DNA of 44,954 bases from a phage: the sequence record OZ503098.1; one strand, given 5' to 3'. A program made the translations under genes and the position numbers. The notes under the pieces were generated by a model, which saw only the letters and a list, made by a program, of their open reading frames with translations, had not been told where the DNA came from and did no database searches. Shown piece by piece: positions 1 to 44,954 of the stretch. Each line of letters begins with the position of its first letter. The stretch's first letter is position 1.

Positions 1-2
1 AG

Positions 3-1745
3 TTGCAGGCTATCGCAGACCGGACCATCGCGGCTAAAAACGAGGCGGAAGGATTCCGTAACGAGGCGGAAGGATTCAAGAACACCGCCAACTCTGCGAA
101 AGATGCTGCCGTAGCCGCTAAGACCGCCGCGGAGGCAGCACAAGGTAAAGCCGAGACAGCAAAAACGGCAGCAGAGTCGGCGAAGACCGCTGCGGAGACA
201 GCTAAATCGCAGGCCGTAACCGCTAAAGACCAGGCAAAAGGATTCCGCGACGAGGCTGAAGGCTTCGCCAACAGCGCTGACGCGTCAAAGAAAGTGCCGT
301 ATGCTGGCACCATTGTCACCGCGCCAACTGGCGTGGCGGATATGCTTAAGCGGTTGCGCGATTCTGTTAAAGGCGGTTTTTGGCGCGTTGATGATATTTC
401 GCAGTTCCCAGCGGGTGAGATGGCCCCTTTCATATACGGACCCGGCGTATGTGGAGGCGCAGGGGACACCTTCTTTGCCATCAACGTAGACTATCAGACC
501 TCTCGCGTCAAAGTTTACTCGGGAAACCATAATGCGATTAACGGGACGTTGGGCAGCGTTACCGCCCTTGAGCTTGCGAAGCTGGGTGCTAACGGGGACG
601 TGGCGATCGGGGACGGCGGGACAGGCGCATCGACCGACTGGGGAGCGCGCGCCAACCTTCAAGTCATGTGCGAAAGACAGAGTTCACTGACAACTGAGAA
701 CCTTAACGATCGGAAGGGTGATAAGTCTGGATTTTATTATACTAGCATGACTGCCAACGCAACGTCGGAGCGTAATTATCCCATTCGGGAAGCAGGTTGC
801 CTACTTGTTCAGCGCACTGGCGGTAACGGTCCTGAAAGCTGCATTCAGACGTATACAACATTCAGCAGCGGGCGTCGTTTTATGCGATGGCTTAACGTGG
901 GAACTGGCACTTGGTCGCAGTGGTACGAATTATATAACTCTGGGTCGTCGCCGACTTTTGCCGGGGTGGTCACTGGCTCTGCGGTAACAGCTAAGGGCGA
1001 CAATGCCGAAGCTAGTGTCCGTGTTATTGCCGATACAGGCGGCAAATATTGTGCTCGTATTTCCGTAACGAACAACACTGCAAATAGAAGCGCTAATTTG
1101 GATCTCTACGAGGATGGCTCACTAACCACCCCCCATATAACTTCTAATGGTGGTATAGACTCCAAAGGCGGGGTGCTTTTGCGCGACACACCGTACCCGG
1201 CAGTAGCCTTTCGCACAAACCGGTATACCTCACCAAACACACAACTTGGTGCATTTACTAAGTTTGAGGTTTCGGGGCAAGATGGGGAGGTGGCGTATGT
1301 ATCTCTGTCGCGGCATTACGGTACTGGTGCGGTAGACGGGGCAATATATGTTATGTTCCCCAACACAGGCGGCACGTTGGCTTTACAGGGGACTTCAGGT
1401 GTTAATTACAAGAAAAACATTGTTGATGCCGATGCTAGCGAGGCTTTTGATAGAATCATGGGCCTGCGATTAGTCAACTTTGTTTACAAAGATGATGAAC
1501 AGGAGCGCGTTCGCTTTGGTGTTATCGCCGAAGAAGCGGAAGTAATAGCGCCGCAGTACATCAAGCACCATAAGGTACCCTACGAGGATATTATTGACGA
1601 AGACGGCAACAAAATCGGCGAGAAAACACGGGATAGACCGTCCGTCGATGTAAACCCGATCGTCATGGATTTGATGGGGTGCGTTCAATACCTAAATAAG
1701 CAGGTGGAGGAATTGAAGGCGGAGATCGCGGCGCTGAAGAAGTAA
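3..1745 (+). CDS. Tail fibre protein, C-terminal part of a gene that starts at 44407 and crosses the window junction (about 721 aa in total); C-terminal intramolecular-chaperone-like domain plus short coiled coil
   Basis: Frame open from window start to stop at 1743-1745 and continuous with the ATG at 44407 because 44828-44954 duplicates 1-127. Ala/Lys-rich repeats (NEAEGFRNEAEGFKN, AKTAAESAKTAAETAK). C-terminal segment LVNFVYKDDEQERVRFGVIAEEAEVIAPQYI resembles the conserved core of tail-fibre/endosialidase auto-cleaving chaperone domains. Hairpin terminator follows. Confidence 0.7.
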   Translation: MQAIADRTIAAKNEAEGFRNEAEGFKNTANSAKDAAVAAKTAAEAAQGKAETAKTAAESAKTAAETAKSQAVTAKDQAKGFRDEAEGFANSADASKKVPYAGTIVTAPTGVADMLKRLRDSVKGGFWRVDDISQFPAGEMAPFIYGPGVCGGAGDTFFAINVDYQTSRVKVYSGNHNAINGTLGSVTALELAKLGANGDVAIGDGGTGASTDWGARANLQVMCERQSSLTTENLNDRKGDKSGFYYTSMTANATSERNYPIREAGCLLVQRTGGNGPESCIQTYTTFSSGRRFMRWLNVGTGTWSQWYELYNSGSSPTFAGVVTGSAVTAKGDNAEASVRVIADTGGKYCARISVTNNTANRSANLDLYEDGSLTTPHITSNGGIDSKGGVLLRDTPYPAVAFRTNRYTSPNTQLGAFTKFEVSGQDGEVAYVSLSRHYGTGAVDGAIYVMFPNTGGTLALQGTSGVNYKKNIVDADASEAFDRIMGLRLVNFVYKDDEQERVRFGVIAEEAEVIAPQYIKHHKVPYEDIIDEDGNKIGEKTRDRPSVDVNPIVMDLMGCVQYLNKQVEELKAEIAALKK

Positions 1746-1750
1746 ATAGA

Positions 1751-1775
1751 AGGGGCCATACGGCCCCTTTTTAGT
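1751..1775. terminator. Hairpin terminator between convergent genes (tail fibre on + strand, leftward operon end on - strand)
   Basis: AGGGGCC-atac-GGCCCCT stem-loop followed by TTTTT on the plus strand; sits between stop 1745 (+) and stop 1771 (-). Confidence 0.6.
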
Positions 1776-7598: not shown

Positions 7599-7877
7599 CT
7601 ATGCGACCAATTCAGCAACCAATAAATCACAGTCGGCGATGTTGTCTATGACGCGAACGTCCGCACCGCGGCGGGCCATCCGCTCATGCTCGCGTACCTG
7701 GTGCGGCTTCGGTTTTCCGCCGGGGCGCTTCACTTCGACGAACACTATTTTGCCGTTGATGATGATAATCAGATCGGGCGCACCCGCGCGCCCCTCCCAG
7801 GCCATTTTGCGGCAGAATCCGCCTACCTCTTTCACCCGTCGCATCAGGTGACTTTGAATCTTGCCTTCTGGTGTCAT
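7599..7877 (-). CDS. VRR-NUC domain nuclease
   Basis: APDLIIIINGKIVFVEVKRPGGKPKPHQ matches the VRR-NUC PD-(D/E)xK core (D...E-V-K); ATG 7877 abuts the upstream stop. Confidence 0.6.
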   Translation of the reverse strand: MTPEGKIQSHLMRRVKEVGGFCRKMAWEGRAGAPDLIIIINGKIVFVEVKRPGGKPKPHQVREHERMARRGADVRVIDNIADCDLLVAELVA

Positions 7878-8476
7878 TGTCGGCTTCTCCTTACGGCAGC
7901 GATGGCGGGTCCGATAAACTTCCGCATTTCGTCCGGGGTAAACCGGTCGCCGCGGGCTATGTTGCACTCTACGCAGCACGGCACACAATTATCTTTAGTA
8001 TGTCCAACCGCATTGTTGAGTCTGTCCACTCCATTGTCGCCGGTGAATCCGCAATACGTACACGGCAGGGAAGTAAGGTGCAGAACGTCCTCGGTTGTTA
8101 GGTCGGTGCTTAACCCCTTCCTTTCGTCTGACTTGCGGTATTGAAAGAGTTTATAGTAGGCGCGGACCTCTGGTGTCCGGCGGTTGTACTCTCGGCGTGA
8201 CTTATTAGCGCACGACCGGCACTCTTTACGGATATGTGACTGGCTGGCCTTGTTTCCTGGGCGGAAGTTCTCCGGCGTAAGCGTCTTGCGCTCCCCACAC
8301 CGGCGACACGTTACGATCTCCCCAGTGTACTCTCGCCATACTTCGCGCGGCGGAGCGCCTCTTTCTTTGTCCCGTCTCTCTTTCTTATATGCCGCCATGC
8401 ATTTGGCGCACCACGACTGGCCCTTGTTGAAAGCGGACTCATCTTTATCCGTATTACAACGCCCACAATGTTTCAT
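7874..8476 (-). CDS. Cys-rich zinc-finger protein with HNH-like C-terminus
   Basis: Several CxxC pairs; C-terminal CTYCGF...VDRLNNAVGHTKDNCVPCCVECNIARG resembles an HNH/zinc-binding nuclease core. Start placed at ATG 8476 (MKHCGRCN) rather than 8584, which would overlap the polymerase gene. Confidence 0.45.
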   Translation of the reverse strand: MKHCGRCNTDKDESAFNKGQSWCAKCMAAYKKERRDKERGAPPREVWREYTGEIVTCRRCGERKTLTPENFRPGNKASQSHIRKECRSCANKSRREYNRRTPEVRAYYKLFQYRKSDERKGLSTDLTTEDVLHLTSLPCTYCGFTGDNGVDRLNNAVGHTKDNCVPCCVECNIARGDRFTPDEMRKFIGPAIAAVRRSRQ

Positions 8477-8543
8477 ATACACCCCCGAAAAAGAAAACGC
8501 CAGACAATAATGCCCGACGTTTCCGCTAAAAGCAACATTTCCG

Positions 8544-10835
8544 CTACTTGCGGTAGCGATACATGCAATCGCCTTCGGCGGCAAGAGGGAAGCCTTTCGC
8601 CCAAACAGGCAGGTCGCACATCAGCGCGCATAGCTCCTCGGTCGTGTAGTCGTCAGTATCCGGAACCTCGGTGATCAGTTCATCGTGTACGGACAGTACG
8701 ATCTCATACCCAGCAGCTTCAACGCCTGGCATGGACCATGCGAGAATATCGCGACACAGCGCCTGCACGATGTTTTCCGTCAGTTTGCCGCCGTAGGTAT
8801 ACTGGAAGCCCCACTGGCGCGTCGTCTGATTCTCGCCCTGGTATTTGATGCGGGTGCTGGTGCGCTTCTTGCCGGTGTCTTCGTCAATCTCGGTCGTGAC
8901 AGACAGCGCAATGCCTGGATAACTCATAATACGCCCCGACGGCAACTCAATTTTCAACCACCACCCTGCGGCGTTCGGGTCGTCGCGCTCCTCGTCGAAG
9001 GTTGGGTCATGCTTCGCCTTCGTGCGAACAATCTTAAGCGCTTTCCTGCCATCCGGGCGAACGTTCGCACCCGCCCAGTATGCTTTGCCAGGATTGCGGA
9101 TCGCGCAGAGCACCGCGTCTTCCAGTTCAGCCCAAAATGCTACCGTCTTAGGGTGAGCCTCGCGCCACATACGTTTGATCGCGTCACACGTCAACCACAC
9201 GTTTTTCGGCAGTATGTAAGTTGGGCGCTCGTCTTTCTTGCCAGGCTTCGGCGGGCGCTTGGCTTCGTTAATGCGGGCATACTCATAACCACGTTTCGCC
9301 GCGGCCCAAATATGATCGGGGAATGTGCCCTTCATGACGTCCGCCATCGCATACAGGTCGAGGCCCAGGTTTTTAGCAAACTGCAGGAACGCTGCAACAC
9401 CGCCACCATAGCCCAACCCCAATTCGCACGCCTTACCAATCTGGCGCAAGTCTTTGCAGTTGGCTTTGATGTATTCCGGGTCGAGGCCAAACATCTTACC
9501 GGCAGTTTCACAATAGATATCGCGACCCGCCCTGAACACCATTAGCGCGGTTTTCTCCCCCGCGATCCAGGCGAGGCCACGCCCTTCCACGTTGGAGAAG
9601 TCAGCTACGACAAACTTCTTACCCTTCGCCGGAATAATGCACCCGCGAACAGTCGAGGCCGTTAGCTTCGATATGTCATACGCCCAGTGCGCTGTCCCGC
9701 GTAACAGGGAGTTGATGCCGTTGGTAAGCATGTGCGACCGCACCCAAAACGCGACGTCGCTCTCGCCTTCACGGCGTTTAATCTTCCCTTCGTGGTCGTC
9801 GCTATACTCGCCGCGTGCCAGGTTTTGCGGCTGGAAGCCTTTGCCGGCCCAGCGTAGCGTGCGTTTTGCCCCGCCATACTGGAGACAACCACGGCGGCGA
9901 CCATCGGCAGACAGCCCATTTACGAGCGGATTGTACTTAGTAGATGCCGTTGATGACGCGCCGAGGCGCATCTCGATAAGCACTTTGCCCTCGTCGGGGA
10001 AGTCCGGGTCTTCCAGCAGTTCGTTAAGCGTGGATTTCTGCGCGTTGTGTATTGTGAACGCAGGCGCGAGGTCGCGCAGCGCTGGCAGGAAGTCATTGCC
10101 GGTCAGCTTACCGCCGAAGCGCTCCCATGCTTCTTCCTTCAATTCTTCCTTATGCGCCTGCACCGCTTTGATCGCGGCGTTAGCCAGGTCAACGTCCACA
10201 TAGAAGCCGCGGTCGTTAATCATCTGGTCAATAAGCAGGATTTCATCTTCCTTCGGCGTGTTGCCCCAGTCTGGTATGCGCCAGTAGACTTCACGCATAG
10301 CAACAATATCCAGCGCGGCGTAGCGCAGGAATTTAGCCCACTCCTCGGGGTGCGTCTCGCGCGTATAGCGACGGATTTTGTAGGTCTTAGGGGTTGGCTT
10401 ACAGAATCGTTTGATTAGCGCCTTGCCAGCCTTATCCTTCGCGTGTTCTGCGTCAACGCCCAACACCTGGCACTGCATATCGAGGCTACCTGGCAGCGCG
10501 TGTCGAAAGGCCATAATCATGGTATCTTCGATCTGGCCTACCGGCAGGTCAATGCCCCACTTCTCGCGAATAACCAGGCGGTCAAACAGGAGGCCGTTAG
10601 CCATCACGATTTTTGCTTTCTTGCGGGATACCCGGCGGAGCGCCTTGCGCAGTTCACGCGGCATTGTGGGGGACTCGGTGCAATCCCATGTCTGCACGCG
10701 GCCCTCGTCGATGGCGTATGTGCAAATCATAATCTCGGTAGTTGGGTGTTCCGCGTAGGCGTATGCGCCCACTTTCTTCAGATCCACCCCGCTAAATGTC
10801 TCGGTATCGAGGAAAAGGCGTTCGAAGTCTTTCAT
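8544..10835 (-). CDS. DNA polymerase I family (family A) with 3'-5' exonuclease domain
   Basis: 763 aa; exo motif FLDTETFSG near the N-terminus, motif B-like RQIGKACELGLGYGGG, motif C VHDE (SVHDELITEV). Confidence 0.85.
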   Translation of the reverse strand: MKDFERLFLDTETFSGVDLKKVGAYAYAEHPTTEIMICTYAIDEGRVQTWDCTESPTMPRELRKALRRVSRKKAKIVMANGLLFDRLVIREKWGIDLPVGQIEDTMIMAFRHALPGSLDMQCQVLGVDAEHAKDKAGKALIKRFCKPTPKTYKIRRYTRETHPEEWAKFLRYAALDIVAMREVYWRIPDWGNTPKEDEILLIDQMINDRGFYVDVDLANAAIKAVQAHKEELKEEAWERFGGKLTGNDFLPALRDLAPAFTIHNAQKSTLNELLEDPDFPDEGKVLIEMRLGASSTASTKYNPLVNGLSADGRRRGCLQYGGAKRTLRWAGKGFQPQNLARGEYSDDHEGKIKRREGESDVAFWVRSHMLTNGINSLLRGTAHWAYDISKLTASTVRGCIIPAKGKKFVVADFSNVEGRGLAWIAGEKTALMVFRAGRDIYCETAGKMFGLDPEYIKANCKDLRQIGKACELGLGYGGGVAAFLQFAKNLGLDLYAMADVMKGTFPDHIWAAAKRGYEYARINEAKRPPKPGKKDERPTYILPKNVWLTCDAIKRMWREAHPKTVAFWAELEDAVLCAIRNPGKAYWAGANVRPDGRKALKIVRTKAKHDPTFDEERDDPNAAGWWLKIELPSGRIMSYPGIALSVTTEIDEDTGKKRTSTRIKYQGENQTTRQWGFQYTYGGKLTENIVQALCRDILAWSMPGVEAAGYEIVLSVHDELITEVPDTDDYTTEELCALMCDLPVWAKGFPLAAEGDCMYRYRK

Positions 10836-11060: not shown

Positions 11061-11849
11061 TTAACGGCGGCGACGTTTGCGTGGCGCTTCGTCTTCGTCG
11101 TCGTCCTCATCTTCGTCATCGCGTGGCTTACGACGTTTGCGAGGTTTTTCATCTTCCTCATCGTCGTCGTCATCGCGGCGCTTGGACTTTTTGGACTTGC
11201 GCGGCTTGTCATCTTCATCATCGTCATCACGACGTTTTGACTTCTTAGCCTTGCGCGGTGCTTCGTCTTCGTCTTCGTCGTCGTTGTCCAGGTCTTCATC
11301 GGAGCAAGAAGAACCACCACCACCGAAGGATTCGCCGTCATCGCGGAAGCGCAGACCCAGCAAGCCAGCACCGAGTCCCTTGCCGTTGGTATTGTTCCAC
11401 GCCCAGATATCGAGTGACACGTTGCAATAACAACCGGAGTAGATCTCCTGGCCTTCGATCTCGTCGCCGTCGATGGTCAGGCCTTGTTCAGTCTGCTTCT
11501 CGCCGAGTGACGTTTGAATGATCGGCTGTTTGAACGATTTAGCGTTGATGTACAACATGCCTTCGAATTCTTCGGTTACTTCATCGCGCTCGTCGCCGTC
11601 GCGAACTGCGCATTCCTTAGAATCCTGGGCGTAGTGGCGGTCCATCCACTTATCGGCATTCTTCTCAGATTTCAGCTTGTCGGTGAGCACTGCGCGCGCT
11701 GCCGCTTCCACTTTGTCCACCTGCGGATCTTCTTTATCCAGAAGAATCACGGCGCGGTATGCTGGTTTTTGTCCATCCTGTTTAGGGGTATCACGTTCCC
11801 AAATTTTCAGGAAACATACGCGCACATTTTTCAGGTTGACTTTAGCCAT
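11061..11849 (-). CDS. Putative single-stranded DNA-binding protein (DUF2815-like) with a long acidic/basic repeat tail
   Basis: N-terminus MAKVNLKNVRVCFLKIWE resembles the DUF2815 phage SSB-like N-terminus; located next to a DUF2800-like nuclease and PolA. C-terminal about 80 aa are three reiterations of DDDDEDD / KPRKSKKSKRR blocks. ATG 11849 has a GAGGAA RBS. Confidence 0.45.
   Translation of the reverse strand: MAKVNLKNVRVCFLKIWERDTPKQDGQKPAYRAVILLDKEDPQVDKVEAAARAVLTDKLKSEKNADKWMDRHYAQDSKECAVRDGDERDEVTEEFEGMLYINAKSFKQPIIQTSLGEKQTEQGLTIDGDEIEGQEIYSGCYCNVSLDIWAWNNTNGKGLGAGLLGLRFRDDGESFGGGGSSCSDEDLDNDDEDEDEAPRKAKKSKRRDDDDEDDKPRKSKKSKRRDDDDDEEDEKPRKRRKPRDDEDEDDDEDEAPRKRRRR
11080..11290. repeat. 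In-frame tandem repeat (about 60-bp units, three copies) encoding the acidic/basic tail of the SSB-like protein
   Basis: Repeated GTC/GTCGTC/ATC and CTT/TTT/GCG runs at DNA level; the protein shows the RRDDDDEDDKPRKSKKSKRRDDDDDEEDEKPRKRRKPRDDEDEDDD periodicity. Confidence 0.5.
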
Positions 11850-14223: not shown

Positions 14224-14769
14224 TTAATCTTCCAGTTCGAAATAAGTTTCGACGATTTCTTTAAGATCTTTGTGGAAGTCTTCGACGTCTTCATCTTCCA
14301 GCTTGGCGATTGATTTGATCTCAAACGATTCCAGCAGGTCGTCAAATTCGTCGTTCGCGTCGTCGTCGTCACCACCCGCGATAATAGCGGCGTACTGTTT
14401 GATTTCGTCGCGCATCTCTGCCAGCGGGTCGGCATCTTTCTTACCTTTGCCTTTCGCCGGTGCTTTTTTACCCTTCGCGGGCTTCACGTCATCGGCATCA
14501 TCGTCGTCGTCGTCATCTTCTACGACTTCTTTTTTGGCCTTGCCTTTAGACTTGGTTTCTTTTGCCGCGCCTTTTTTCGTTTTAGGCGTATCTTCGACTT
14601 CGTCCTGATCGTCGTCGTCTTCGACTTCAGTCTCCGGCTTGGCCTTGCCTTTCTTAGCAGTGCCGTTTGCTTTTGGGTCTACGGCAGCGCCAACGGTTTC
14701 ATAATGCTTAGCGATGGTTTCCAGTGCTACTACGCCGCGAGTAATCAGGTTTACGATTTGTTCAAACAT
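14224..14769 (-). CDS. First leftward early gene: highly charged low-complexity protein (181 aa) with alternating poly-Asp/Glu and Lys-rich blocks
   Basis: ATG 14769 with GGAGATATACC RBS; EVEDDDDQDEVEDTPKTKKGAAKETKSKGKAKKEVVEDDDDDDDADDVKPAKGKKAPAKGKGKK; first gene downstream of the divergent control region. Confidence 0.55.
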   Translation of the reverse strand: MFEQIVNLITRGVVALETIAKHYETVGAAVDPKANGTAKKGKAKPETEVEDDDDQDEVEDTPKTKKGAAKETKSKGKAKKEVVEDDDDDDDADDVKPAKGKKAPAKGKGKKDADPLAEMRDEIKQYAAIIAGGDDDDANDEFDDLLESFEIKSIAKLEDEDVEDFHKDLKEIVETYFELED

Positions 14770-17638: not shown

Positions 17639-17719
17639 TTTTTGCGCGCATTGGTTGCCAAATTGCGTGCTTTTAGGTGGTCGTATTGGTTGCCGTGTAG
17701 TGTAAATATAGTGAATAGT

Positions 17720-17905
17720 TATGCAATAAAACTGCATAAACTAAGCGGGACAAAAAGCGGGACAGACAGGAGGCGGGACAAAGCGGGACAGCACCCCTGT
17801 CCCGCCCCGGATGACGCGGCCTGGCGAGGAGCGGGACAGCGGGACAGCACCCCAGTCTTTCAGACTAGACGGGGGGTCTGGCACCCCCCTCGTCTGAGAC
17901 TGCAT
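17720..17905. repeat. Iteron/hairpin array 1: at least six direct GCGGGACA copies, inverted TGTCCCGC copies and a G6/C6 hairpin, preceded by TGCATAAA
   Basis: GCGGGACA at 17745, 17757, 17773, 17783, 17831, 17839; inverted copy at 17798; AGTCTTTCAGACT palindrome and GACGGGGGG-tctggca-CCCCCCTCGTC hairpin at 17853-17895. Non-coding (the TTG-start ORF 17642..17998 is rejected). Confidence 0.7.
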
Positions 17906-18061
17906 AAAATCCGGGATTGCATAATACACGGCAACATGATGCAAATTGCGGTCGTCGGTGAACTAGGCAACCAATGCGAGTTGCAGAATGGTGGGTGAAA
18001 AATGCAGTTTGCAGTCACAGCAGATAGCGATCGACTTTTTCATACGCGTGATTAATATTGG

Positions 18062-22478: not shown

Positions 22479-22548
22479 CCCACTTAGATGGCAGGGCCGT
22501 CTCCTATGTTGCCGATGGCCGGCGCATATGAACAAAAGGGCTTATATC

Positions 22549-23100
22549 ATGGCAGAAATCAAAGTTAAGGGCCGACGCGCCAAACTGGACGGACGAGTAG
22601 CAGTAACCCCGCGCCGTAAACCAGGCGAGCAAACCGAGCATACCAATCTCGGACCTGAGATCGAGTACGGCAAGCGCCGTAAAGGCGGCAAATGTGGACG
22701 CCCTACTGACTACCGATCTGTTTACTGCGACCAGCTTCGTCGCTATTTTGCCGACGCCGACGCCTGGCAGGTCAATTACTCCGATAAAGGCGCTGCGCAG
22801 GTAATCCCTCGCAACAAAATGCCAACCTTCGGCAGATTTGCCGCGGAAATCGGTGTGGGCGTAGCTTGCCTGTATCGCTGGGCGCGCGCACATGAGGAGT
22901 TTGCCGAGGCGATGGCGGACGCAATGGAGTTGCAGAAAACTTTCCTGATGGAAGCTGGCGGCGTGACTATCGCGGCAGGCTTCGCGACCTTCCTGCTCAA
23001 AGCCAATCACGGCGTACGCGACGATATCCCACTGGATGACGACGAAGATGATAACGGCGACGTCGTTGTCGAACCTACCGGCAAAGGCCAGGGTGAGTAA
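22549..23100 (+). CDS. Terminase small subunit
   Basis: Immediately upstream of and overlapping the large terminase gene; HTH-like FGRFAAEIGVGVACLYRWARAHEEF; basic N-terminus, acidic C-terminus; start chosen at ATG 22549 (MAEIKVKG). Confidence 0.55.
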   Translation: MAEIKVKGRRAKLDGRVAVTPRRKPGEQTEHTNLGPEIEYGKRRKGGKCGRPTDYRSVYCDQLRRYFADADAWQVNYSDKGAAQVIPRNKMPTFGRFAAEIGVGVACLYRWARAHEEFAEAMADAMELQKTFLMEAGGVTIAAGFATFLLKANHGVRDDIPLDDDEDDNGDVVVEPTGKGQGE

Positions 23101-24485
23101 TGCGTAACTATGCGGCAGAACACCGCGCACTGGAACGCGCGATCGCGAAGCGCAACCGACCACCGCGCCCGACACGCGTTGCGCAGGCGGTGCGGCTTTA
23201 CCAGCCTGATTGCCTACCGCACCAGGTCGAACTACTGCGGGACACGAAGACTAAAATCCTCGGCCTGTGTTCCGGCTTCGGCGGCGGCAAGTCATGGGTC
23301 GCAGCCCGTAAGGTAATCCAGCTTTTAACCCTGAACCCGGGTCATGATGGCATCGTTACAGAACCGACTATTCCCCTCCTGGTTAAAATCATGTATCCAG
23401 AATTGGAGAAGGCTTTCGACGAGGCTGGCTTCCGGTGGAAGTTCAACAAGCAGGACAAGATCTATAGCGTTCTGGTGAAAGGCAAATGGACCCGCGTGAT
23501 CTGTGAATCAATGGAGAACTATACCCGTCTGATCGGGGTCAACGCCGCGTGGATTGTTGCCGACGAGTTCGATACCACGAAACAAGACGTCGCAATGGCG
23601 GCTTATCACAAATTGCTCGGTCGTCTGCGTGCGGGCGTGGTCCGTCAGTTTGTCATCGTATCCACGCCGGAAGGCTTCCGGGCAATGTATCAAATTTTCG
23701 AGGTGGAGAAGGATAGCCAGAAACGTTTGATCCGGGCGAAGACCACCGACAACCACCATTTACCGGCAGACTTTATCGACACGCTGCGCAGTCAGTACCC
23801 GGCGAACCTTATTGACGCGTACCTGAACGGCCTGTTTGTTAACCTTACGTCGGGCGCGGTGTACAAGATGTTCAACCGCGAGGAGAACGCCAGCACCGAA
23901 GAAGTGCAGCCGGACGACACGCTGATTATCGGCATGGACTTTAACGTCACGAAGATGGCGGCGGTTGTGTACGTCAGACGGCAGCGAATCACAGAGAACA
24001 AGGAGTTCCGCGACGAGATTCACGCGGTGGATGAATTTGTGGACCTGTTTGACACTCCGGCGATGATCGAGGCGATCGAGGAGCGCTACCCGGAACATTG
24101 CGCCGCCGGTAAAGTCGTAGTTTACCCGGATAGCAGTGGCAAGTCGCGTAAGACGGTCAACGCGTCGTCGTCCGATATCGCGCAACTGGAAGATGCGGGC
24201 TTCGAGGTGGAATATGACAGTGTTAACCCGCCTGTGAAAGACCGATTGATCGCGATGAATACGATGATGTGCAACTCGAAGGGTGTGCGCCAGTATTTTG
24301 TCAACCTGGATAAATGCCCTACACTAGCGAAATGTCTGGAACAGCAGGTGTACGACCTGAAGAAAGGCGAGCCGGATAAAACTGCCGGTGTGGACCACAT
24401 GAATGACGCAGCGGGCTACCCTATTGCGCACTTGTTCCCTGTGATTCGTCCGATCGCCGTTGTTCCTACCGTAGATTTCTACTAA
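23100..24485 (+). CDS. Terminase large subunit
   Basis: Walker A-like GFGGGKS, Walker B-like AAWIVADEFD, C-terminal nuclease-like region; 461 aa; TAATG overlap with the small subunit gene. Confidence 0.8.
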   Translation: MRNYAAEHRALERAIAKRNRPPRPTRVAQAVRLYQPDCLPHQVELLRDTKTKILGLCSGFGGGKSWVAARKVIQLLTLNPGHDGIVTEPTIPLLVKIMYPELEKAFDEAGFRWKFNKQDKIYSVLVKGKWTRVICESMENYTRLIGVNAAWIVADEFDTTKQDVAMAAYHKLLGRLRAGVVRQFVIVSTPEGFRAMYQIFEVEKDSQKRLIRAKTTDNHHLPADFIDTLRSQYPANLIDAYLNGLFVNLTSGAVYKMFNREENASTEEVQPDDTLIIGMDFNVTKMAAVVYVRRQRITENKEFRDEIHAVDEFVDLFDTPAMIEAIEERYPEHCAAGKVVVYPDSSGKSRKTVNASSSDIAQLEDAGFEVEYDSVNPPVKDRLIAMNTMMCNSKGVRQYFVNLDKCPTLAKCLEQQVYDLKKGEPDKTAGVDHMNDAAGYPIAHLFPVIRPIAVVPTVDFY

Positions 24486-24496
24486 GGAAACCGACC

Positions 24497-26017
24497 ATGA
24501 CCGTTAACGTTGACAACCAGCACCCGCTCTATGCGCGCATCGCGCCAGAGTGGAAAATGATCCGTGACTGCGTAGCGGGGGAGCGCGCCGTGAAGGCGTG
24601 CGGCCCCTTGTACCTGCCACACCCCGCAAGCGGCGACACCACCGACCCGAAATCACGGGCACGGTATAAGGCGTATAAGCAACGTGCTGTCTTCCTGAAC
24701 GCCACCGCCCGCACACTGAATGCGCTGTTAGGTGTCGCCTTCGCCAAACCGGTGAGTATGGACCTTTCCGGGGCAATGGCTGACCTGATTGATGACGTAG
24801 ACGGCAGCGGGATGCCGCTGGCGCAACTCCTGCGCGGCGCTATGTCGGAAGTGCTGCAATCGGGCCGCGCAGGCTTTATGGTGGACTACGACCGCCAGGC
24901 GCATTTTGACGAACTGGGTAACGTAGTGCCGCAGACAGCCGCGGAGATGGCGGCACACCGCCCGCTTATCCGCCTGTATACGGCTGAACAGATCATTAAC
25001 TGGCGGCAGACCCACGGGGTTGACACGCTAATCGTGCTGAAGGAAACGGACGAAATCAGCACCGAAGACCCGGACGACTTCGCAAACCACGAAGTAACGA
25101 TCTGGACCGAGCTTCGCATGATTGCAGGTAAGGCCCACGCCCGCCGCTGGTTTTACAACGCGGACACGTCCGAGGTGCAGATGGACTTGCCGCGAGGCTT
25201 CACCCGCACCGACCTTGTACCATTGGTGGATGCCTCCGGTAATGCGCTAACTCAACTGCCTTTTTGTTGGTGTGGTGCGGTTGATAACAATGCAACACCA
25301 GATGCCGCACCGCTGGCGGATATCGCGTCCATCAACATTAAGCACTACAACGCCGAAGCAGACGTCGCCGAGATTGCGCACATTGTGGGCCAACCTACAC
25401 TCATTGCGACCGGTCTGACCCAATCATGGGCCGATAAAAACCTGAAGGGCGGCATCGCACTAGGCGCGACTAAGGGTGTTATCCTGGGGCAGAATATGGA
25501 CGCTAAACTGCTTCAGGCTGAGGAGAGAAACCTGTCAGTTGCGCTGTGTGAGCGACGCGAATTGCAAATGGCTAAACTGGGCGCTGCCCTGGTTGAGAAG
25601 GGGACCGCACCTAAGACGGCAACGGAGGCGGCTTATGATGCGCAGACTGATAACAGTATCTTGTCGCTGATTGCCGGTAATGTTGAGAAGGCTTTCAACC
25701 GTGCGCTGCAAATCGTCCAGCTTTTCACGGGGGACGCCGCAACCCAGCAAGTCACGTTGAATAAGTTTTACACCGAGATCACGGTGGACGCACAGCTTAT
25801 GACCGCGATGATGGCAGGTGTGCAGACTGGTACTGTCCGTCTGGCGGACTTTATCAAGTGGATGATGGCCCAGGGCGTTATCGATGACTCGCAAACCGTT
25901 GAGCAGGTGGAAGACGAATTGCGAAATCAGAATCCATTGCCTCAAATGTCCCCGGATGCGGTAGAATCTACCGAAGAAGACCCGGACAAGGTATCGGACA
26001 ATGGCGAAGACAATTAA
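24497..26017 (+). CDS. Portal protein
   Basis: 506-aa ORF immediately after the large terminase with an acidic C-terminal tail; assignment by position and size. Confidence 0.65.
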   Translation: MTVNVDNQHPLYARIAPEWKMIRDCVAGERAVKACGPLYLPHPASGDTTDPKSRARYKAYKQRAVFLNATARTLNALLGVAFAKPVSMDLSGAMADLIDDVDGSGMPLAQLLRGAMSEVLQSGRAGFMVDYDRQAHFDELGNVVPQTAAEMAAHRPLIRLYTAEQIINWRQTHGVDTLIVLKETDEISTEDPDDFANHEVTIWTELRMIAGKAHARRWFYNADTSEVQMDLPRGFTRTDLVPLVDASGNALTQLPFCWCGAVDNNATPDAAPLADIASINIKHYNAEADVAEIAHIVGQPTLIATGLTQSWADKNLKGGIALGATKGVILGQNMDAKLLQAEERNLSVALCERRELQMAKLGAALVEKGTAPKTATEAAYDAQTDNSILSLIAGNVEKAFNRALQIVQLFTGDAATQQVTLNKFYTEITVDAQLMTAMMAGVQTGTVRLADFIKWMMAQGVIDDSQTVEQVEDELRNQNPLPQMSPDAVESTEEDPDKVSDNGEDN

Positions 26018-33890: not shown

Positions 33891-34215
33891 CGGAGCGGGA
33901 CAGGCGGGACGTCCCGTTTTGTCCCGCACCTCTAAAACTGCATATTTACTCACCACAATTGCATAAATCAAAAGCGGGACAGGGGTGCTGTCCCGATCTG
34001 TCCCGCCCCCAAAATGTGAATGTCTATTCAGTTTTATTGCATAAAGTAAGCGGGACAAAAAGCGGGACAGAATGAGGCGGGACAAAGCGGGACAGCACCC
34101 CTATCCCCGCCAGTGCTGCCGCGGGTTTTAGCCGATCGGGACAGGCGGGACAAAGCCCAGTCTTTCAGACTAGACGGGGGTCAATGGCCCCCCTCGTCTG
34201 AGACTGAATAAGGTT
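33891..34215. repeat. Iteron/hairpin array 2 (expanded copy of array 1) inserted between the chaperone and tape measure genes
   Basis: GCGGGACA/TGTCCCGC copies at 33895, 33904, 33926, 33975, 33991, 34002, 34051, 34063, 34079, 34089 and 34153 (approximate); block 34048-34107 nearly identical to 17742-17802; hairpin block 34157-34215 nearly identical to 17850-17905; TGCATAA words at 33939, 33960, 34038, 34251. Confidence 0.7.
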
Positions 34216-39081: not shown

Positions 39082-39689
39082 CAACGTTTAAATTGTACGG
39101 CGTCTTAGGGCGTCGATTCGGTAAAGTGCATAAACTGGACTGCTTCACTCCGGGTGAGGGTATTACCGGCCTGTGCGTGAAGTTACCCGGCTTACAGGAC
39201 TTTCTAATGTCGGCCCACCTGGACAACATGATGTTCAAAGTGCGCAAGGGCAACCACACAATGACCGGCTACGACGAATTGGGCGAGTTCCACGGTAACC
39301 GCGTCGTCACCATCGCGCCGGTTATGACTGGCGCAAAAAGAGGATTGGGACAATTGCTGGCGGGTGTCGCGATTGTGGTGGCGTCGTTCTACGCGCCAGC
39401 GCTTGCTACTGCCGCTTTTGGGGCTTCGGCGGCAACCGCTGCCGCTATCGGGACGGCGACGTTTTCGTTCGGAATGTCTCTTGCGATGGGCGGTGCTATG
39501 CAATTATTATCACCGCAACCGAAAGGATTGCAGACAAGGCAGGACGTGGATAACAAGGCGTCGTATGCGTTCGGCGGCCCAGTAAACACTACCGCGCAAG
39601 GCACGGCTCTTGGTGTATTATGGGGCGAGCGTGAGATCGGCGGCGCTATTATTTCAGCCGGAATCGTAACCGAGGATTTGAACGAATGA
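39072..39689 (+). CDS. Tail assembly protein I-like
   Basis: Overlaps the K-like gene; soluble N-terminal domain followed by a Gly/Ala-rich hydrophobic stretch (AGVAIVVASFYAPALATAAFGASAATAAAIG); position before the J-like gene. Confidence 0.5.
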   Translation: MAMTTFKLYGVLGRRFGKVHKLDCFTPGEGITGLCVKLPGLQDFLMSAHLDNMMFKVRKGNHTMTGYDELGEFHGNRVVTIAPVMTGAKRGLGQLLAGVAIVVASFYAPALATAAFGASAATAAAIGTATFSFGMSLAMGGAMQLLSPQPKGLQTRQDVDNKASYAFGGPVNTTAQGTALGVLWGEREIGGAIISAGIVTEDLNE

Positions 39690-42600
39690 CGATTGTATAC
39701 GACGTCACGGGACATAAAGGCGGCGGTGGCAAACAGCACACCCCACAGGAGACGCCCGATAGCCTGCATTCGCTGGCTAAAATCCGCATCTTGCTTGCGC
39801 TGGGCGAAGGGGAGTTCGAAGGTATTCCCGACCCTAACGAATTACGGCAGCGCGTATATCTGGACGGAACACCGATCCAGAACGCAGACCTGTCCGAAAA
39901 CTTCCCCGGAGCGCGTGTGGAGTTCCGCCCCGGCACACAGCACCAGGATGTGATCCACGGATTTTCAGCGGTGGAAAGTGAGCAATCTGTCGGCGTAAAA
40001 CTGGAAAACGGTACGCCGTGGGTACGCCAGATTAACGATACCAGTCTGGACGCCGTTCGCATTCGCATCGGCATTCCGGCCCTGTACACTAACGAAGATA
40101 ATGGCGACCTGGTTGGCGGACGCATTGACTATAAGATCGTTGTGTATACGGATAACGCCGACCCGCGTGAGTTCAGATTCGCCGCCGTTGGTAAAACAAT
40201 GTCGCTATATGAGCGCGACCACCGCATCGAATTACCGCCGAACGTGAATACCGGCTGGCGAGTGGAGGTGCACCGCATAACGGCGGACTCCACATCGGCG
40301 AAAGTGGTTAATGATATCCGGGTGCAATCCATTACTGAGATTATCGACGCCCGCCTGCGATACCCGCTAACCGCGCTGTTGTTCGTGGAGTTCGACGCCA
40401 AAGCGTTCCAGAACATCCCGCGCGTGTCCATCAAGTGCAAAGGACGTAAAGTGCTGGTGCCGAACAACTATGACCCGATTAGGCATACCTATTCTGGAAA
40501 CTGGGATGGGACGTTTAAACGCGCATGGACGGATAACCCTGCGTGGCACTGGTATGATATTTGTATTACTGAGCGCTTCGGCCTCGGTCGTAGGATCAAG
40601 CCGCAGATGCTAAACCGCTATGCGCTTTACCAGATCGCGCAGCGCTGCGATCAACTGGTCAGTGACGGCAACGGTGGGCAGGAAATCAGATTTAAGAATG
40701 ATATGTACATCCAGTCGCAGACCGATGCCTGGACAGTGCTTAAGGATTTAGCCGCTATCTTTGCCGGAATGACCTGGTGGGGTAATCAGATGTTGAATAT
40801 CGTCAGTGACCAACCGGTCGCGGCAGTGTCACACACTATCACCAACGCCTCGGTTATTGATGGTCGATTCGACTACGCATCTGGCAGCCAGAAAACTCGG
40901 TATTCAACTTTCGCGGTAGCATACGGCAACCCGAAAAACCACTATGATGACGCTATCGCAACGGGCCAGCGCGTCGAACTGGTGCGACGCCATAAGATTA
41001 ACCGTCTTGATATTACGGCGATCGGTTGTACGCGTGAATCTGAGGCGCAACGCCGCGGGCACTGGGCGCTAATATCCAACCAGCTTGACCAGCAAGTTAG
41101 CTTTAAAGTTGGCATGGAAGGGTTATTCTTTATTCCAGGTAGCGTAGTAGCGATCGCGGACACAAACATTTCTGGGGGTTTTGAGACGCGCGGCGGTCGA
41201 CTGTTGTCAGACCCCGGAACGCGTACCGTGCTGCACACGGACTGCGAAATCACGTTCCGCCCGGGCGATAAGTTCCTTGTGCGTACCGATAGCGGAAATG
41301 TGGAGACTCGCGAGATCGCCAGCGTCAACGGCAACAAGGTCACGCTAAAAACCGCACTGGATGCCGACCCGATTCCAGACCAGCCGTTTTGCGTTGACGG
41401 CAACGATATCCAGTTGCAAAAATTCCGCATCACCGACCTGGAATATGACGACTCTACCAGCACTTTCTCGGTGCGCGGGATTGAATATAACGATAGCAAA
41501 TATGATGCCGTTGATAATGGCGCGCGCCTAGACCCGGGCATCTTTACGCAAGTGCCGGACGGTGTAATGAAGGGGCCGGAATCCGTGACTATAACTCCGT
41601 CGCAGATTTCATCGCAAGGCCAGCTAATAACCAACGTGGATATTGTTTTCCCGCCGGTGAAAGATGCCGTGGTGTATGAAATCCAGTGGAGGCGTACTAG
41701 CCTGCAGAATATGGAAATCCAGTGGGGTAACGACTGGGTGAATATCCCGCGCACGGCGTCGAATGGTGCGCACATCCCTAACGTGTTCTCCGGCAACTAC
41801 CAAGCGCGCGTCCGCGCAATCGGTATGGGTGAGATTTCATCTCCGTGGGTGTCTTCCGAAATCACGCCGGTGGAAGGTCGCCTCGGCGGGCTTAACGCAC
41901 CAATCATCACCAACGCGATTTCAGGTTTGCATCAAATTCTATGGAAGTGGAATCACAACAACGCTGCGACTGATATCTCATACACCGAGCTTGAAGTGCG
42001 CAAGACTGGCGAAACGGAATGGAAATTCTTAACAAACGTCCCATACCCTGGGGCAGAGTATGCGCAAACGTCGCTGGAGTTCGGCATATACCAGCAGTTG
42101 CGCGCCCGTGTAGCGGATAAAATAGGCAACCTGTCGGACTGGTCGGCCCCGTTCGAAGGCCAGGTGAGTGACAAAGTTGACGAGTACATGAAGGGGCTTG
42201 ATGACGAGTTCTTGACTTCCGAGGATGGTAAACACTTCCAGGAAGCTATTAACACGATCCCGCAGGGTATTTACGAGGCAATGCTCACCGACGCGCAGCA
42301 GTTGTTTAACGCCCGTGCCGAGTACAAAGGGATTTACGCAGAAATCAAGGTGGCTTATAACGTGGCGGCGGACGCCAGCAAGGCCGTAGCGCAACTGGAG
42401 ACGTTGATCGGCACGCGACTTGACGATGCAGAAGCGGCGATCCACACGTTGCAGACAGCGCAAAGCACGCACGAGCAAGCCTTCGCCCAGTATCAGCAAA
42501 CTGTTGCCGCTAAATTTGGGGATCAGGAAGCCGCCATCCAGCAGGTACAAACGGCAACGAGCACCAATGCTCAGGCGCTGGCGGATTATAAAGTCCACGT

Positions 42601-43138
42601 AGCGGCGCAGTTTGGTCAACAGTCTGCGGCTATCGAGCAGAAGATGACGTCTTCGTTTAACCATGCCGGTGGCAACGCCACATACAGCCTTAAGGCGGGC
42701 GTGACGTATAACGGGACTTACTATGATGCCGGTATGCAGCTTTCCGTCGTGGCGGAAGGCGGCGCGGTTAAATCCCGCATCGCCTTCAAGGCGGACCAGT
42801 TCTACATCATGCACCCGTCGAATGGGTCGCTTTCGTCCGCGTTTATCGTGGATGGCGGGCAGGTGTACATTGACACGGCCCGAATCAAGAACGCGTCGAT
42901 CAACTTCGCGCAGATCACGGACACGCTCCAATCGTACAACTGGATCCCAGAGAGCAGGGGCTGGCGTATCGCGAAAGATGGTTGGGCCGAGTTCCTCAGC
43001 GCTACGGTCCGCGGCAGGCTGTACGCTGATAGTGGTGATTTTGCTTTTAACGGAATAAACAACACCGTTCAAATTAACGGAAATGGGGTGACGGTTAACC
43101 TGCCCGGAGGCGGGAGGGTTGTATTAGGTACATTCTGA
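39686..43138 (+). CDS. Central tail fibre / host specificity protein J-like (tail tip attachment protein)
   Basis: 1150-aa ORF at the end of the tail tip module, translationally coupled to the I-like gene; size and position match lambda gpJ-type proteins. Confidence 0.8.
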   Translation: MTIVYDVTGHKGGGGKQHTPQETPDSLHSLAKIRILLALGEGEFEGIPDPNELRQRVYLDGTPIQNADLSENFPGARVEFRPGTQHQDVIHGFSAVESEQSVGVKLENGTPWVRQINDTSLDAVRIRIGIPALYTNEDNGDLVGGRIDYKIVVYTDNADPREFRFAAVGKTMSLYERDHRIELPPNVNTGWRVEVHRITADSTSAKVVNDIRVQSITEIIDARLRYPLTALLFVEFDAKAFQNIPRVSIKCKGRKVLVPNNYDPIRHTYSGNWDGTFKRAWTDNPAWHWYDICITERFGLGRRIKPQMLNRYALYQIAQRCDQLVSDGNGGQEIRFKNDMYIQSQTDAWTVLKDLAAIFAGMTWWGNQMLNIVSDQPVAAVSHTITNASVIDGRFDYASGSQKTRYSTFAVAYGNPKNHYDDAIATGQRVELVRRHKINRLDITAIGCTRESEAQRRGHWALISNQLDQQVSFKVGMEGLFFIPGSVVAIADTNISGGFETRGGRLLSDPGTRTVLHTDCEITFRPGDKFLVRTDSGNVETREIASVNGNKVTLKTALDADPIPDQPFCVDGNDIQLQKFRITDLEYDDSTSTFSVRGIEYNDSKYDAVDNGARLDPGIFTQVPDGVMKGPESVTITPSQISSQGQLITNVDIVFPPVKDAVVYEIQWRRTSLQNMEIQWGNDWVNIPRTASNGAHIPNVFSGNYQARVRAIGMGEISSPWVSSEITPVEGRLGGLNAPIITNAISGLHQILWKWNHNNAATDISYTELEVRKTGETEWKFLTNVPYPGAEYAQTSLEFGIYQQLRARVADKIGNLSDWSAPFEGQVSDKVDEYMKGLDDEFLTSEDGKHFQEAINTIPQGIYEAMLTDAQQLFNARAEYKGIYAEIKVAYNVAADASKAVAQLETLIGTRLDDAEAAIHTLQTAQSTHEQAFAQYQQTVAAKFGDQEAAIQQVQTATSTNAQALADYKVHVAAQFGQQSAAIEQKMTSSFNHAGGNATYSLKAGVTYNGTYYDAGMQLSVVAEGGAVKSRIAFKADQFYIMHPSNGSLSSAFIVDGGQVYIDTARIKNASINFAQITDTLQSYNWIPESRGWRIAKDGWAEFLSATVRGRLYADSGDFAFNGINNTVQINGNGVTVNLPGGGRVVLGTF

Positions 43139-43140
43139 AA

Positions 43141-43165
43141 TTAAAGCCCCGCAAGGGGCTTTAAT
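43141..43165. terminator. Bidirectional hairpin between the J-like gene (+) and the convergent minus-strand cassette
   Basis: AAAGCCCC-gcaa-GGGGCTTT palindrome between stop 43138 (+) and stop 43161 (-). Confidence 0.45.
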
Positions 43166-44096
43166 ACATGTTGGGGAGGTACGGCAGCGGAGTTGGTATT
43201 GTAACGTCGGGTCTGTTGCCGATTTCGTACCTTACAATTCGTGAGCCAGTTCCAGACCTTACATATCCGCCGCTCATAACCACGCCTTTGTTTCTTAGTT
43301 CCTTGTAGGCGGGTATAGCCCTTGTATTGAACCCACACCGTAGAATTGGGAAGTAGGAGTCACCAATATACTGATTGCTACCTGACAGACTTATAAACCC
43401 AGACACAATAAGGGGTCTGGTAACTGTTGAAAGTGTACAGGCGCCGTTGCGGTTAAATATGTTTAACCCTGGCCCCGGCACGGGCGCAACCATCTGGAAA
43501 ATAACCAAATCCATAGTAACACTTCCGGGTGTGTGCCCTGTATCATTTGTGTTTATGTTTGTGCATATCAACCGATTAACGCCGTCGTACTCAACTGAAA
43601 CACCAGAATTATCCCACCTGCCGAAAGGTATGCCGTATATTGGAAGGGTGTAACTATCATGGAATGAAATAGTTTGAGCAAATTTGCAGATAAGCAACCT
43701 GTCAGTTGTGGTTATCGAGGTGAAATCCGTGCTGTCGGCAACGTAAAGCCCCTGTCCTGTCGATGCTCTAAGAACCTCAACTACAGTACCCGAAAACTGC
43801 GTTACGCGGTCTGGATAACCGTTCTCATAGCCAATAGATATTGTTCCACTGGATGCTGTTGAAGAAAAGCCCTTTATATAATAAACCTCAACACCACGAT
43901 CTAGTTCGAATGAGTATGCGCCATTGTTCGGCAGAAGAAACCTCGAAGCCCCTTCATTACCTTGAATAGGGAATGACTTGCTAAACCCGCCACTTGAAAC
44001 ATTGAAGTTCCCCGCAAAATTCAAGGCACGCATACCCGCGGTGATTATCATCGGGTTGCGTCCGTCCTTAAGATCAATGTAGATACCTTGCGCCAT
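43161..44096 (-). CDS. Hypothetical protein (311 aa), second gene of a reverse-strand two-gene cassette
   Basis: ATG 44096 overlaps the stop of the upstream lipoprotein gene (TAATG); Gly/Ser/Thr-rich, beta-rich composition; no signal peptide recognised. Confidence 0.5.
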   Translation of the reverse strand: MAQGIYIDLKDGRNPMIITAGMRALNFAGNFNVSSGGFSKSFPIQGNEGASRFLLPNNGAYSFELDRGVEVYYIKGFSSTASSGTISIGYENGYPDRVTQFSGTVVEVLRASTGQGLYVADSTDFTSITTTDRLLICKFAQTISFHDSYTLPIYGIPFGRWDNSGVSVEYDGVNRLICTNINTNDTGHTPGSVTMDLVIFQMVAPVPGPGLNIFNRNGACTLSTVTRPLIVSGFISLSGSNQYIGDSYFPILRCGFNTRAIPAYKELRNKGVVMSGGYVRSGTGSRIVRYEIGNRPDVTIPTPLPYLPNMY

Positions 44097-44326
44097 TAGT
44101 TCCACTCCCGAGAGCCATAATCACGAACTGAGCCACCATGCCCTTTAATTCCGTCATAACGAATATCAACTTCACCCGCCGGAACAACTACACCGCCTTT
44201 CCATTTAGCCACACATACGCCGCTTGCTTGCGTCGCGCACCAACCATCCGTACGCGGGCCAGAAGAGCAACCAACAGCCATGACTACTAACGCGGCAATG
44301 ATTGCGGATTTGATTAAAGTTTTCAT
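44096..44326 (-). CDS. Small lipoprotein (76 aa): candidate receptor-masking / superinfection-exclusion factor
   Basis: ATG 44326 with AGGAG RBS; signal peptide with lipobox [23 protein letters not shown]; several Cys in the mature part; lies between tail tip and tail fibre genes on the opposite strand. Confidence 0.55.
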
Positions 44327-44385: not shown

Positions 44386-44406
44386 CCAATTTAAGAGGAT
44401 TTAGCT

Positions 44407-44954
44407 ATGGCAGCGGGTACGCTCTCTGTAACGAACAATAGCAAGGCAGTAGTAGGGGTCGGCACAACGTTTACCGCACTTAAAGCTGGCGACTTTCTGT
44501 CGCTGGTAGTGGGGCAAGTACCCTACACTGTTGCGATCGCGTCCGTCGAAAGCGACACCGCGCTTACGCTGGTGCTGCCGTTCGACGGCCCCACGGCAAC
44601 CGGCCTTGCCTGGGACGGCATCAAACGCGACACCATGTCACTGGCAACGATGGGCGTAACCGTCCAGGCACAGAAAGCATTGCGCTTGATGATTGCTGAC
44701 GAAAACAACTGGCGTGCAATCTTCGGTAACGAGGAACAGATCTCGGTCACGCTGCCGAGTGGGCAAGTTGTGCAGGGTATGTCATGGGGATACCTGTCCA
44801 GCCTGCTTAAAGACGTGGGCCCGGTGGAGTTGCAGGCTATCGCAGACCGGACCATCGCGGCTAAAAACGAGGCGGAAGGATTCCGTAACGAGGCGGAAGG
44901 ATTCAAGAACACCGCCAACTCTGCGAAAGATGCTGCCGTAGCCGCTAAGACCGC
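44407..44954 (+). CDS. Tail fibre protein, N-terminal part (continues as 3..1745 across the junction)
   Basis: ATG 44407 with AAGAGGA RBS; frame open to the window end and in phase with the 3..1745 ORF through the duplicated 127 bp. Confidence 0.65.
   Translation, partial: MAAGTLSVTNNSKAVVGVGTTFTALKAGDFLSLVVGQVPYTVAIASVESDTALTLVLPFDGPTATGLAWDGIKRDTMSLATMGVTVQAQKALRLMIADENNWRAIFGNEEQISVTLPSGQVVQGMSWGYLSSLLKDVGPVELQAIADRTIAAKNEAEGFRNEAEGFKNTANSAKDAAVAAKT
44828..44954. repeat. Exact 127-bp duplicate of window positions 1-127 (circular closure overlap or terminal redundancy)
   Basis: Base-for-base identity of 44828-44954 with 1-127. Confidence 0.9.

Follow-up and report, generated by a model that had tools for sequence, protein, structure and literature searches.

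The window, which is the whole stretch of phage DNA that was analyzed (44,954 nucleotides, OZ503098.1), carries one part of a lateral tail fiber gene at its end and the remaining part at its start. The gene begins on the plus strand with an ATG at position 44407, which matches the position where the lateral tail fiber gene of TheodorHerzl is annotated to begin. A putative ribosome-binding site, AAGAGGA (44393-44399, plus strand), was read from the sequence 7 nt upstream of this ATG. Joining positions 44407-44827 to positions 1-1745 yields 2166 nt, equivalent to 721 codons and a single terminal stop codon at 1743-1745. Codon 141 (GAG) straddles the join, being formed by position 44827 together with positions 1-2, and the next codon starts at position 3, the first position of the open reading frame 3..1745. 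A preliminary description of this DNA had proposed that the frame starting at 44407 continues into 3..1745 and encodes a tail fiber of about 721 amino acids. Both parts of this proposal were borne out, as the joined gene comprises exactly 721 codons and its product matches the tail fiber family PHROG 1980 with an E value of 1e-112.

The fiber gene is a lone plus-strand gene flanked by minus-strand genes. Upstream of these lies the gene for a J-like tail tip protein of 1150 amino acids (39686-43138, plus strand), identified by homology. It is followed on the minus strand by the gene for a DUF6453 membrane protein of the rtp44 type (43161-44105), also recognized by homology, which is part of the receptor-specificity locus downstream of J, and by the gene for a phage lipoprotein of the rtp45 type (44096-44326; PF24052, E 2e-32). 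The lipoprotein has 76 amino acids if it is read from the ATG at 44326 as in the relatives; the longest open reading frame of this gene extends to 44389. Lipoprotein and fiber genes are divergent and are separated by a spacer of 80 bp. On the other side of the fiber gene, a conserved open reading frame of 191 amino acids (1771-2346, minus strand; phrog_10558) was found, which is the downstream neighbor of the fiber gene in all relatives. The order J, DUF6453 (minus), lipoprotein (minus), fiber (plus) and 191-residue open reading frame (minus) is the same in phiEco273, HK578 and TheodorHerzl, and this very order from J to the 191-residue frame results from joining the two ends of the window. 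Since the 191-residue frame adjoins the fiber gene in all relatives, synteny continues across the junction. A GC-rich hairpin, GGGGCC-ATAC-GGCCCC with T-runs (1750-1775), is located between the convergent fiber gene and 191-residue frame. With its stem and loop at 1750-1769 and T-runs on both flanks it is a probable two-way terminator. Scans for promoter and terminator consensus sequences around the fiber gene gave counts not above those in shuffled sequences, and only the hairpin at 1750-1769 was convincing by eye.

The two minus-strand genes between J and the fiber gene (43161-44326) are called rtp44- and rtp45-like by the annotators of HK578, and the region shares approximately 91-95% nucleotide identity with TheodorHerzl and HK578. 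In the BASEL study, this receptor-locus allele is associated with the use of LptD, an outer-membrane protein, as terminal receptor (PMC8594841). Because the allele found here matches the one linked to LptD in that study, the phage probably targets LptD as well.

The fiber protein is modular. Its N-terminal anchor, encoded by codons 1-140 and the first base of codon 141 (44407-44827, plus strand), is conserved within the genus. Amino acid identities in the N-terminal part amount to 84% with TheodorHerzl (residues 1-173), 73% with HK578 (residues 1-234) and 83% with phiEco273 (residues 1-464). Beyond residues 173-234 in the case of TheodorHerzl and HK578, or beyond residue 464 in the case of phiEco273, the fibers are unrelated or only weakly related. 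The lateral fibers of these Dhillonviruses (TheodorHerzl Bas14 bas14_0027, HK578 gp25 and phiEco273 XDN94349) thus share the locus, the start and the N-terminal domain (73-84% identity) with the fiber described here, but they differ in length, with 574, 613 and 892 amino acids, respectively, compared to 721. According to the BASEL study only the far 5' end of the lateral fiber gene is conserved (PMC8594841), and the N-terminus of the present fiber agrees with this. The protein has the features of the lateral fibers known from small siphoviruses of the Dhillonvirus and Drexlerviridae type, namely a conserved N-terminal anchor, a variable distal part and a fixed position downstream of the J-associated receptor locus. 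Residues 1-73 (44407-44625) also showed a weak match to the N-terminus of a protein of 199 amino acids named 'Distal tail protein gp20' (PDB 23gd_B, E 2.7e-4) and a further weak match to a minor tail protein family (phrog_9922). These similarities hint that the anchor module may also occur in baseplate or distal tail proteins.

The anchor is followed by an alanine-rich rod (residues 141-237; 1-290, plus strand), which contains 31% alanine and three [ND]EAEGF motifs and gave weak, repetitive matches to the alanine-rich part of DT57C LtfA. The medial module (residues 238-474; 291-1001, plus strand) is common to several Dhillonviruses and T1-like phages, with identities of 62-76% to Gluttony, welsh, PC2, Poky and others and of 82% to the Tunavirus AV106. 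It precedes a distal tip that is presumed to bind the receptor (residues 475-605; 1002-1394, plus strand) and a C-terminal intramolecular chaperone (residues 606-721 and the stop codon; 1395-1745, plus strand; PF13884). The tip corresponds to residues 828-958 of LtfA (8HQZ_d) with an identity of 42.7%, and the chaperone to residues 959-1073 with 78.3%. Over both modules, residues 475-720 of the fiber align without a gap with residues 828-1073 of LtfA (PDB 8HQZ chain d, E 2e-87). The closest relative of the distal part is the fiber of AV106 (WPK33243.1). Across residues 237-711 the two share 82.4% amino acid and 85.7% nucleotide identity, and all other matches were weaker and partial. AV106 is a T1-like phage of another family, the Drexlerviridae. 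Medial module, tip and chaperone are alike in both fibers, whereas the N-terminal anchor of the AV106 fiber differs and its gene is situated between primase/helicase and recombination genes. The GC content of the fiber gene decreases from 0.58 in the 5' third to 0.47-0.51 distally, which fits a distal module of different origin.

The presence of a chaperone-like domain at the C-terminus, which had been suggested earlier, was confirmed by a Pfam match to Peptidase_S74 at residues 609-660 (E 1.9e-9; 38.1 bits at a cut-off of 22). Like other chaperones of the endosialidase, T5 pb1 and LtfA type, the domain is located at the C-terminus and carries a serine residue followed by a lysine five residues later. 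These residues belong to the motif GTS606GVNYK611K (S606-G-V-N-Y-K611), which is in register with GTSGIEYKK of DT57C LtfA, and the columns of the serine and the lysine also align with the MYRF autoprocessing domain (7DC3). Self-cleavage is therefore predicted to occur just before Ser606, with Lys611 as the partner residue. For LtfA, which harbors a pfam13884 domain, autocleavage has been predicted at this same motif (PMC4728585), and its divergent C-terminal region recognizes an O22-like O-antigen (Golomidova et al., PMC4728585). O-antigen glycans have also been proposed as the target of the lateral fibers of Dhillonviruses in the BASEL study (PMC8594841). By homology, the fiber would trimerize, fold with the aid of its own C-terminal chaperone and shed residues 606-721 by self-cleavage at Ser606/Lys611, while the conserved N-terminal domain would anchor it to the tail tip. 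The mature fiber probably binds an O-antigen or another surface glycan during the initial, reversible adsorption, and irreversible binding would fall to the adjacent J-associated receptor locus. The resemblance to the LtfA protein of the T5-like phage DT57C is close in the chaperone, which is 78% identical including the cleavage motif GTSG..YKK, but the tip is only 42.7% identical. Hence the specificity of the two fibers is probably different. Moreover, LtfA comprises 1076 amino acids, possesses a T5-type anchor and acts beside a second fiber protein, LtfB, whereas no ltfB-like gene follows the fiber gene in the window.

On the basis of nucleotide similarity the window is a Dhillonvirus genome, i.e. 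it belongs to the virulent siphoviruses of E. coli that resemble HK578 and SO-1. Its first 24 kb align over at least 80% of their length with more than 100 phage records, mostly with 90-95% identity. The best matches in the phage collection had identities of 85.7-94.6%, and the nucleotide identity between the window and its nearest isolates is about 90-93%. As this is below the usual species threshold of 95%, the phage probably is a new species-level member of this well-studied genus. The genomes of PC2, Gluttony_ev152 and Opt212 cover 89-93% of the circle that results from joining the ends, and 90-93% of each of them is covered by the window in turn. The gaps in this coverage are confined to variable loci, that is the distal part of the fiber gene, the locus downstream of J and a few small segments. 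The circle of 44,827 bp is within the range of 43-46 kb reported for Dhillonviruses (BASEL, PMC8594841). The coverage by three complete genomes together with a size in the range of the genus shows that the genome is complete. A search of the whole window against Rfam gave no match.

The first and last bases of the window were compared. Positions 1-127 are identical to positions 44828-44954, as had been recognized in the preliminary description. No exact match longer than 127 bases exists between start and end, and the bases flanking the overlap differ. The first 30-mer of the window occurs only twice, in the two terminal copies, and a repeat scan identified this pair, with a spacing of 44,827, as the only long exact repeat in the entire window. 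An exact 127-mer cannot recur by chance within 45 kb. If one copy is removed, the 44,954 bp as given become a circle of 44,827 bp. Circular closure of the genome, which had been proposed from the overlap, is supported by this exact match and by the gene order across the join, which equals that of phiEco273, HK578 and TheodorHerzl. The overlap covers codons 141-183 of the fiber gene and lies inside this uninterrupted gene, where nothing marks its borders.

In the relatives, the overlap sequence is present once. The de-duplicated junction and phiEco273 form one unbroken alignment (positions 5-2787 of the junction sequence), which takes in 1.8 kb of sequence ahead of the join and nearly 1 kb behind it. 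If both copies are retained, the alignment is interrupted where the first copy ends and resumes in phiEco273 at a point 127 nt earlier. The first copy (1-127) is therefore genuine single-copy genome sequence. The second (44828-44954) is redundant and is best regarded as an assembler k-mer overlap that has to be trimmed. Its length is the largest k-mer permitted by SPAdes, and this program writes circular paths in such a way that the last k bases repeat the first k. Artificial end overlaps of 127 bp on circular SPAdes contigs are documented and are removed before deposition in the workflow of Philipson et al. 2018 (PMC5923482). For coliphage U136B, SPAdes likewise produced an assembly with terminal repeats of 127 bp, which the authors trimmed (PMC8104045). 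The window resembles these cases in that a phage contig starts and ends with the same 127 bases; the assembler is deduced here from the length of the overlap, and its equality with k = 127 is the only direct link. The repeat at the ends is almost certainly a leftover of the assembly of a circularly closed coliphage genome. The preliminary description had left the choice between a closure artefact and genuine terminal redundancy open. The length of 127, the single copy in relatives and the position in the middle of a gene favor the artefact.

The overlap had also been taken to bear on the question whether the phage packages its DNA by a headful mechanism or through cohesive ends. Taken alone it is silent on this, and the answer has to come from the terminase genes. 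The small terminase subunit TerS (22528-23100, plus strand; 190 amino acids from the ATG at 22528) is 98.9% identical to that of Opt-212, and the large subunit TerL (23100-24485, plus strand; 461 amino acids, Terminase_6N/6C) is 98.3% identical. They are followed by the portal protein gene (24497-26017, plus strand), assigned by homology. These packaging genes and the J-like tail gene are the ones to be expected in a Dhillonvirus. The sequence data of Opt-212 "assembled into circles", and PhageTerm predicted headful packaging from its reads (PMC9022532). The Dhillonviruses UDS3lw and BF9 were also typed as headful phages with a pac site (PMC13348001 and PMC10059673). A published terminase tree places Dhillonvirus beside Jerseyvirus and the P1-type headful terminases, and the restriction pattern of a Jerseyvirus resembled a circular map (PMC10783031). 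In the phage collection, the next relatives of TerL are found in Jersey/Kaguna-type phages with about 41% identity. The sequence comparison of TerL with solved structures in the PDB gave nothing at E <= 0.01 and a weak match to 5OEA (E 0.13) at E <= 10, and the Pfam matches of TerS to the small terminases of P22 (gp3) and Sf6 are weak and below the curated cut-offs. Phylogenetic typing of the large terminase, which the preliminary description had proposed, thus leads to the headful group through the near-identity to the read-typed Opt-212 and the published tree, while the structure comparison contributed no significant match. In agreement with permuted DNA, the assembly closes and the records of relatives have no common end. 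The two ends of each of the PC2, Gluttony_ev152 and Opt212 records fall next to each other on the circle of the window, at about 10.8, 1.97 and 24.5 kb, and the ends of six Dhillonvirus contigs from IMG/VR map to about 7.5, 10.7, 7.2, 9.1, 6.9 and 2.1 kb. The nine records and contigs therefore end at nine different positions, none of which coincides with the junction of the window, and all represent the same circular map in permuted form. In three Dhillonvirus metagenome contigs from IMG/VR, each terminal 40-mer occurred only once, i.e. no end overlap has been retained in these contigs. From the similarity of the terminases we infer that the phage packages by the headful (pac) mechanism. It resembles Opt-212 in the near-identical terminases and in the circularizing assembly; the packaging type is derived from reads in Opt-212, UDS3lw and BF9 and from sequence comparison here. 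In headful phages, the redundancy is usually equivalent to a few percent of the genome length, and its position is not fixed. The virion DNA of the present phage probably has a permuted terminal redundancy that is much longer than 127 bp and invisible in the window.

The best explanation would begin with headful packaging from concatemers, which would generate circularly permuted, terminally redundant virion DNAs without fixed ends, so that the assembly becomes circular. An assembler based on a de Bruijn graph, with a maximum k of 127, would then have traversed this circular path and written a contig whose last k bases repeat the first k. The cut point would be arbitrary and by chance have fallen within codons 141-183 of the lateral tail fiber gene. 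We hold with high confidence that the overlap originates from an assembler on the closed genome of a headful Dhillonvirus, in which it splits a modular lateral fiber. A rival explanation accepts the artefact but supposes that the phage uses cos or other fixed ends elsewhere and that the assembly was closed only via reads from concatemers or ligated ends. Closure alone cannot separate headful from cos packaging if replicating DNA was sequenced, the DNA may stem from a metagenome and not from purified virions, and short genome reports are the source of the PhageTerm calls in the genus. However, all three independent PhageTerm analyses in the genus resulted in headful/pac and none in cos. In addition, TerL is of the Terminase_6N/6C type and is placed with P1-type headful terminases in the published tree, TerS weakly resembles P22 gp3 and the Sf6 small terminase, and no record end is conserved among the relatives. 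Fixed ends at another site are thus unlikely.

Two further explanations dispute the artefact itself, and both appear even less probable. The 127 bp could be a genuine short direct terminal repeat, so that the phage would have fixed ends at this site in the manner of T7 or T3 and only concatemers would contain an intact fiber gene. Other phage groups do have short exact repeats of 100-500 bp at their ends, and such a repeat would likewise make the assembly close on itself. The length of the repeat, however, is exactly the maximum k of SPAdes, and it is located in the middle of a coding sequence without any boundary signal. Relatives with about 90% identity do not share a repeat at their genome ends, as would be expected for direct terminal repeats, but contain one copy in the middle of the gene and have their ends elsewhere: the nine related records and contigs terminate at nine other positions. 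Both terminase subunits, moreover, share 98-99% identity with their counterparts in a phage for which headful packaging was typed. If the repeats were real, a Dhillonvirus with a terminase 98% identical to that of its headful relatives would package DNA of unit length, and the match to k would be a coincidence. We consider this highly improbable. The same holds for a false closure, in which an internal repeat in the alanine-rich part of the fiber would have joined the ends of an incomplete or differently arranged genome. The overlap indeed lies in a repetitive coding segment with two adjacent near-repeats of 21 nt (GAGGCGGAAGGATTC...) and three EAEGF motifs. Nevertheless, these internal repeats are far shorter than 127 nt and the 127-mer has just two copies, both of them terminal. 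Size and gene content match those of complete genomes, and only variable loci are missing. Since phiEco273 holds the 127 bases once and the joined sequence is colinear with real genomes well past both sides of the junction, closure through an internal repeat is excluded in practical terms and receives very little weight. Assembly of a closed headful genome with a retained k-mer overlap remains the preferred explanation.

The full-length combination of modules in the fiber is absent from the phage collection of 50,697 records and from IMG/VR, where the best match had 80% identity over residues 1-515, and a megablast search with the distal part of the fiber gene against plasmids and complete E. 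coli genomes returned nothing. The fiber appears to be a previously unrecorded chimera that combines a Dhillonvirus anchor with a distal module of the Tunavirus type and a tip 43% identical to that of the O22-binding LtfA. We consider this chimera much more likely than real terminal repeats at the window ends. If it is correct, the phage would have a glycan specificity that has so far been assigned to no phage. The fiber is another case of distal module exchange between Dhillonvirus, T1-like and T5-like coliphages.

In biological terms, a repeat of 127 bases that cuts a complete and ordinary lateral fiber gene is routine. The components are of known kinds throughout, comprising an assembler artefact, a genus with headful packaging typed from reads and a modular lateral fiber with a self-cleaving chaperone. 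What is new is small and consists of the probable new Dhillonvirus species and the exact combination of fiber modules, and no open question is made testable by the overlap or the fiber. The practical consequences concern the record. As long as the duplicate is retained, the genome appears longer than it is (44,954 rather than 44,827 bp) and the lateral fiber gene, which of all genes matters most for host range, is broken up into two incomplete open reading frames that gene callers will miss or truncate. Completeness tools label the duplicate as a direct terminal repeat, which invites a wrong inference on packaging. To correct this, the 127 bp should be trimmed, the sequence re-opened at the small terminase gene as is the convention and the fiber annotated as one gene. 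Another public closure artefact may exist in PQ843332.1 (Escherichia phage P-GXEC-L2P5). With 88,607 bp this record is about twice as long as is usual in the genus, the fiber region matches it at two places, and it appears to be a dimer in which a Dhillonvirus genome was assembled twice, head to tail.

Some minor observations were made elsewhere in the window. A segment of about 0.7 kb in the early/replication region (7879-8568) has no nucleotide match in PC2, Gluttony_ev152 and Opt212. This variable insert overlaps the start of a minus-strand open reading frame of 763 amino acids (8544-10835) and an open reading frame of 236 amino acids (7874-8584). Three families of imperfect repeat runs of the GTC/GTCGTC type occur inside minus-strand open reading frames at 11077-11301 and 14267-14652, and they probably encode acidic protein segments rich in Asp and Glu. 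Furthermore, two homologous intergenic elements of about 200 bp were detected at 17711-17907 and 34016-34211, which share 85% column identity. One follows the primase/helicase gene and the other is located just upstream of the tape measure gene. Both carry arrays of the 8-mer GCGGGACA, the motif clusters extending over 17745-17846 and 33895-34152. This 8-mer occurs in 20 copies in the window compared to 2.0 expected, a number reached in none of 100 shuffled sequences. The elements gave no match in Rfam, and a literature search for the motif retrieved only unrelated primer sequences. A stable hairpin is conserved after each array (-30.5 kcal/mol, z -3.0), and both clusters are syntenic in PC2, Gluttony_ev152 and Opt212. 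A regulator or the small terminase may bind to these arrays, or the elements may act as promoter/terminator modules, and they are listed here as candidates for such functions.
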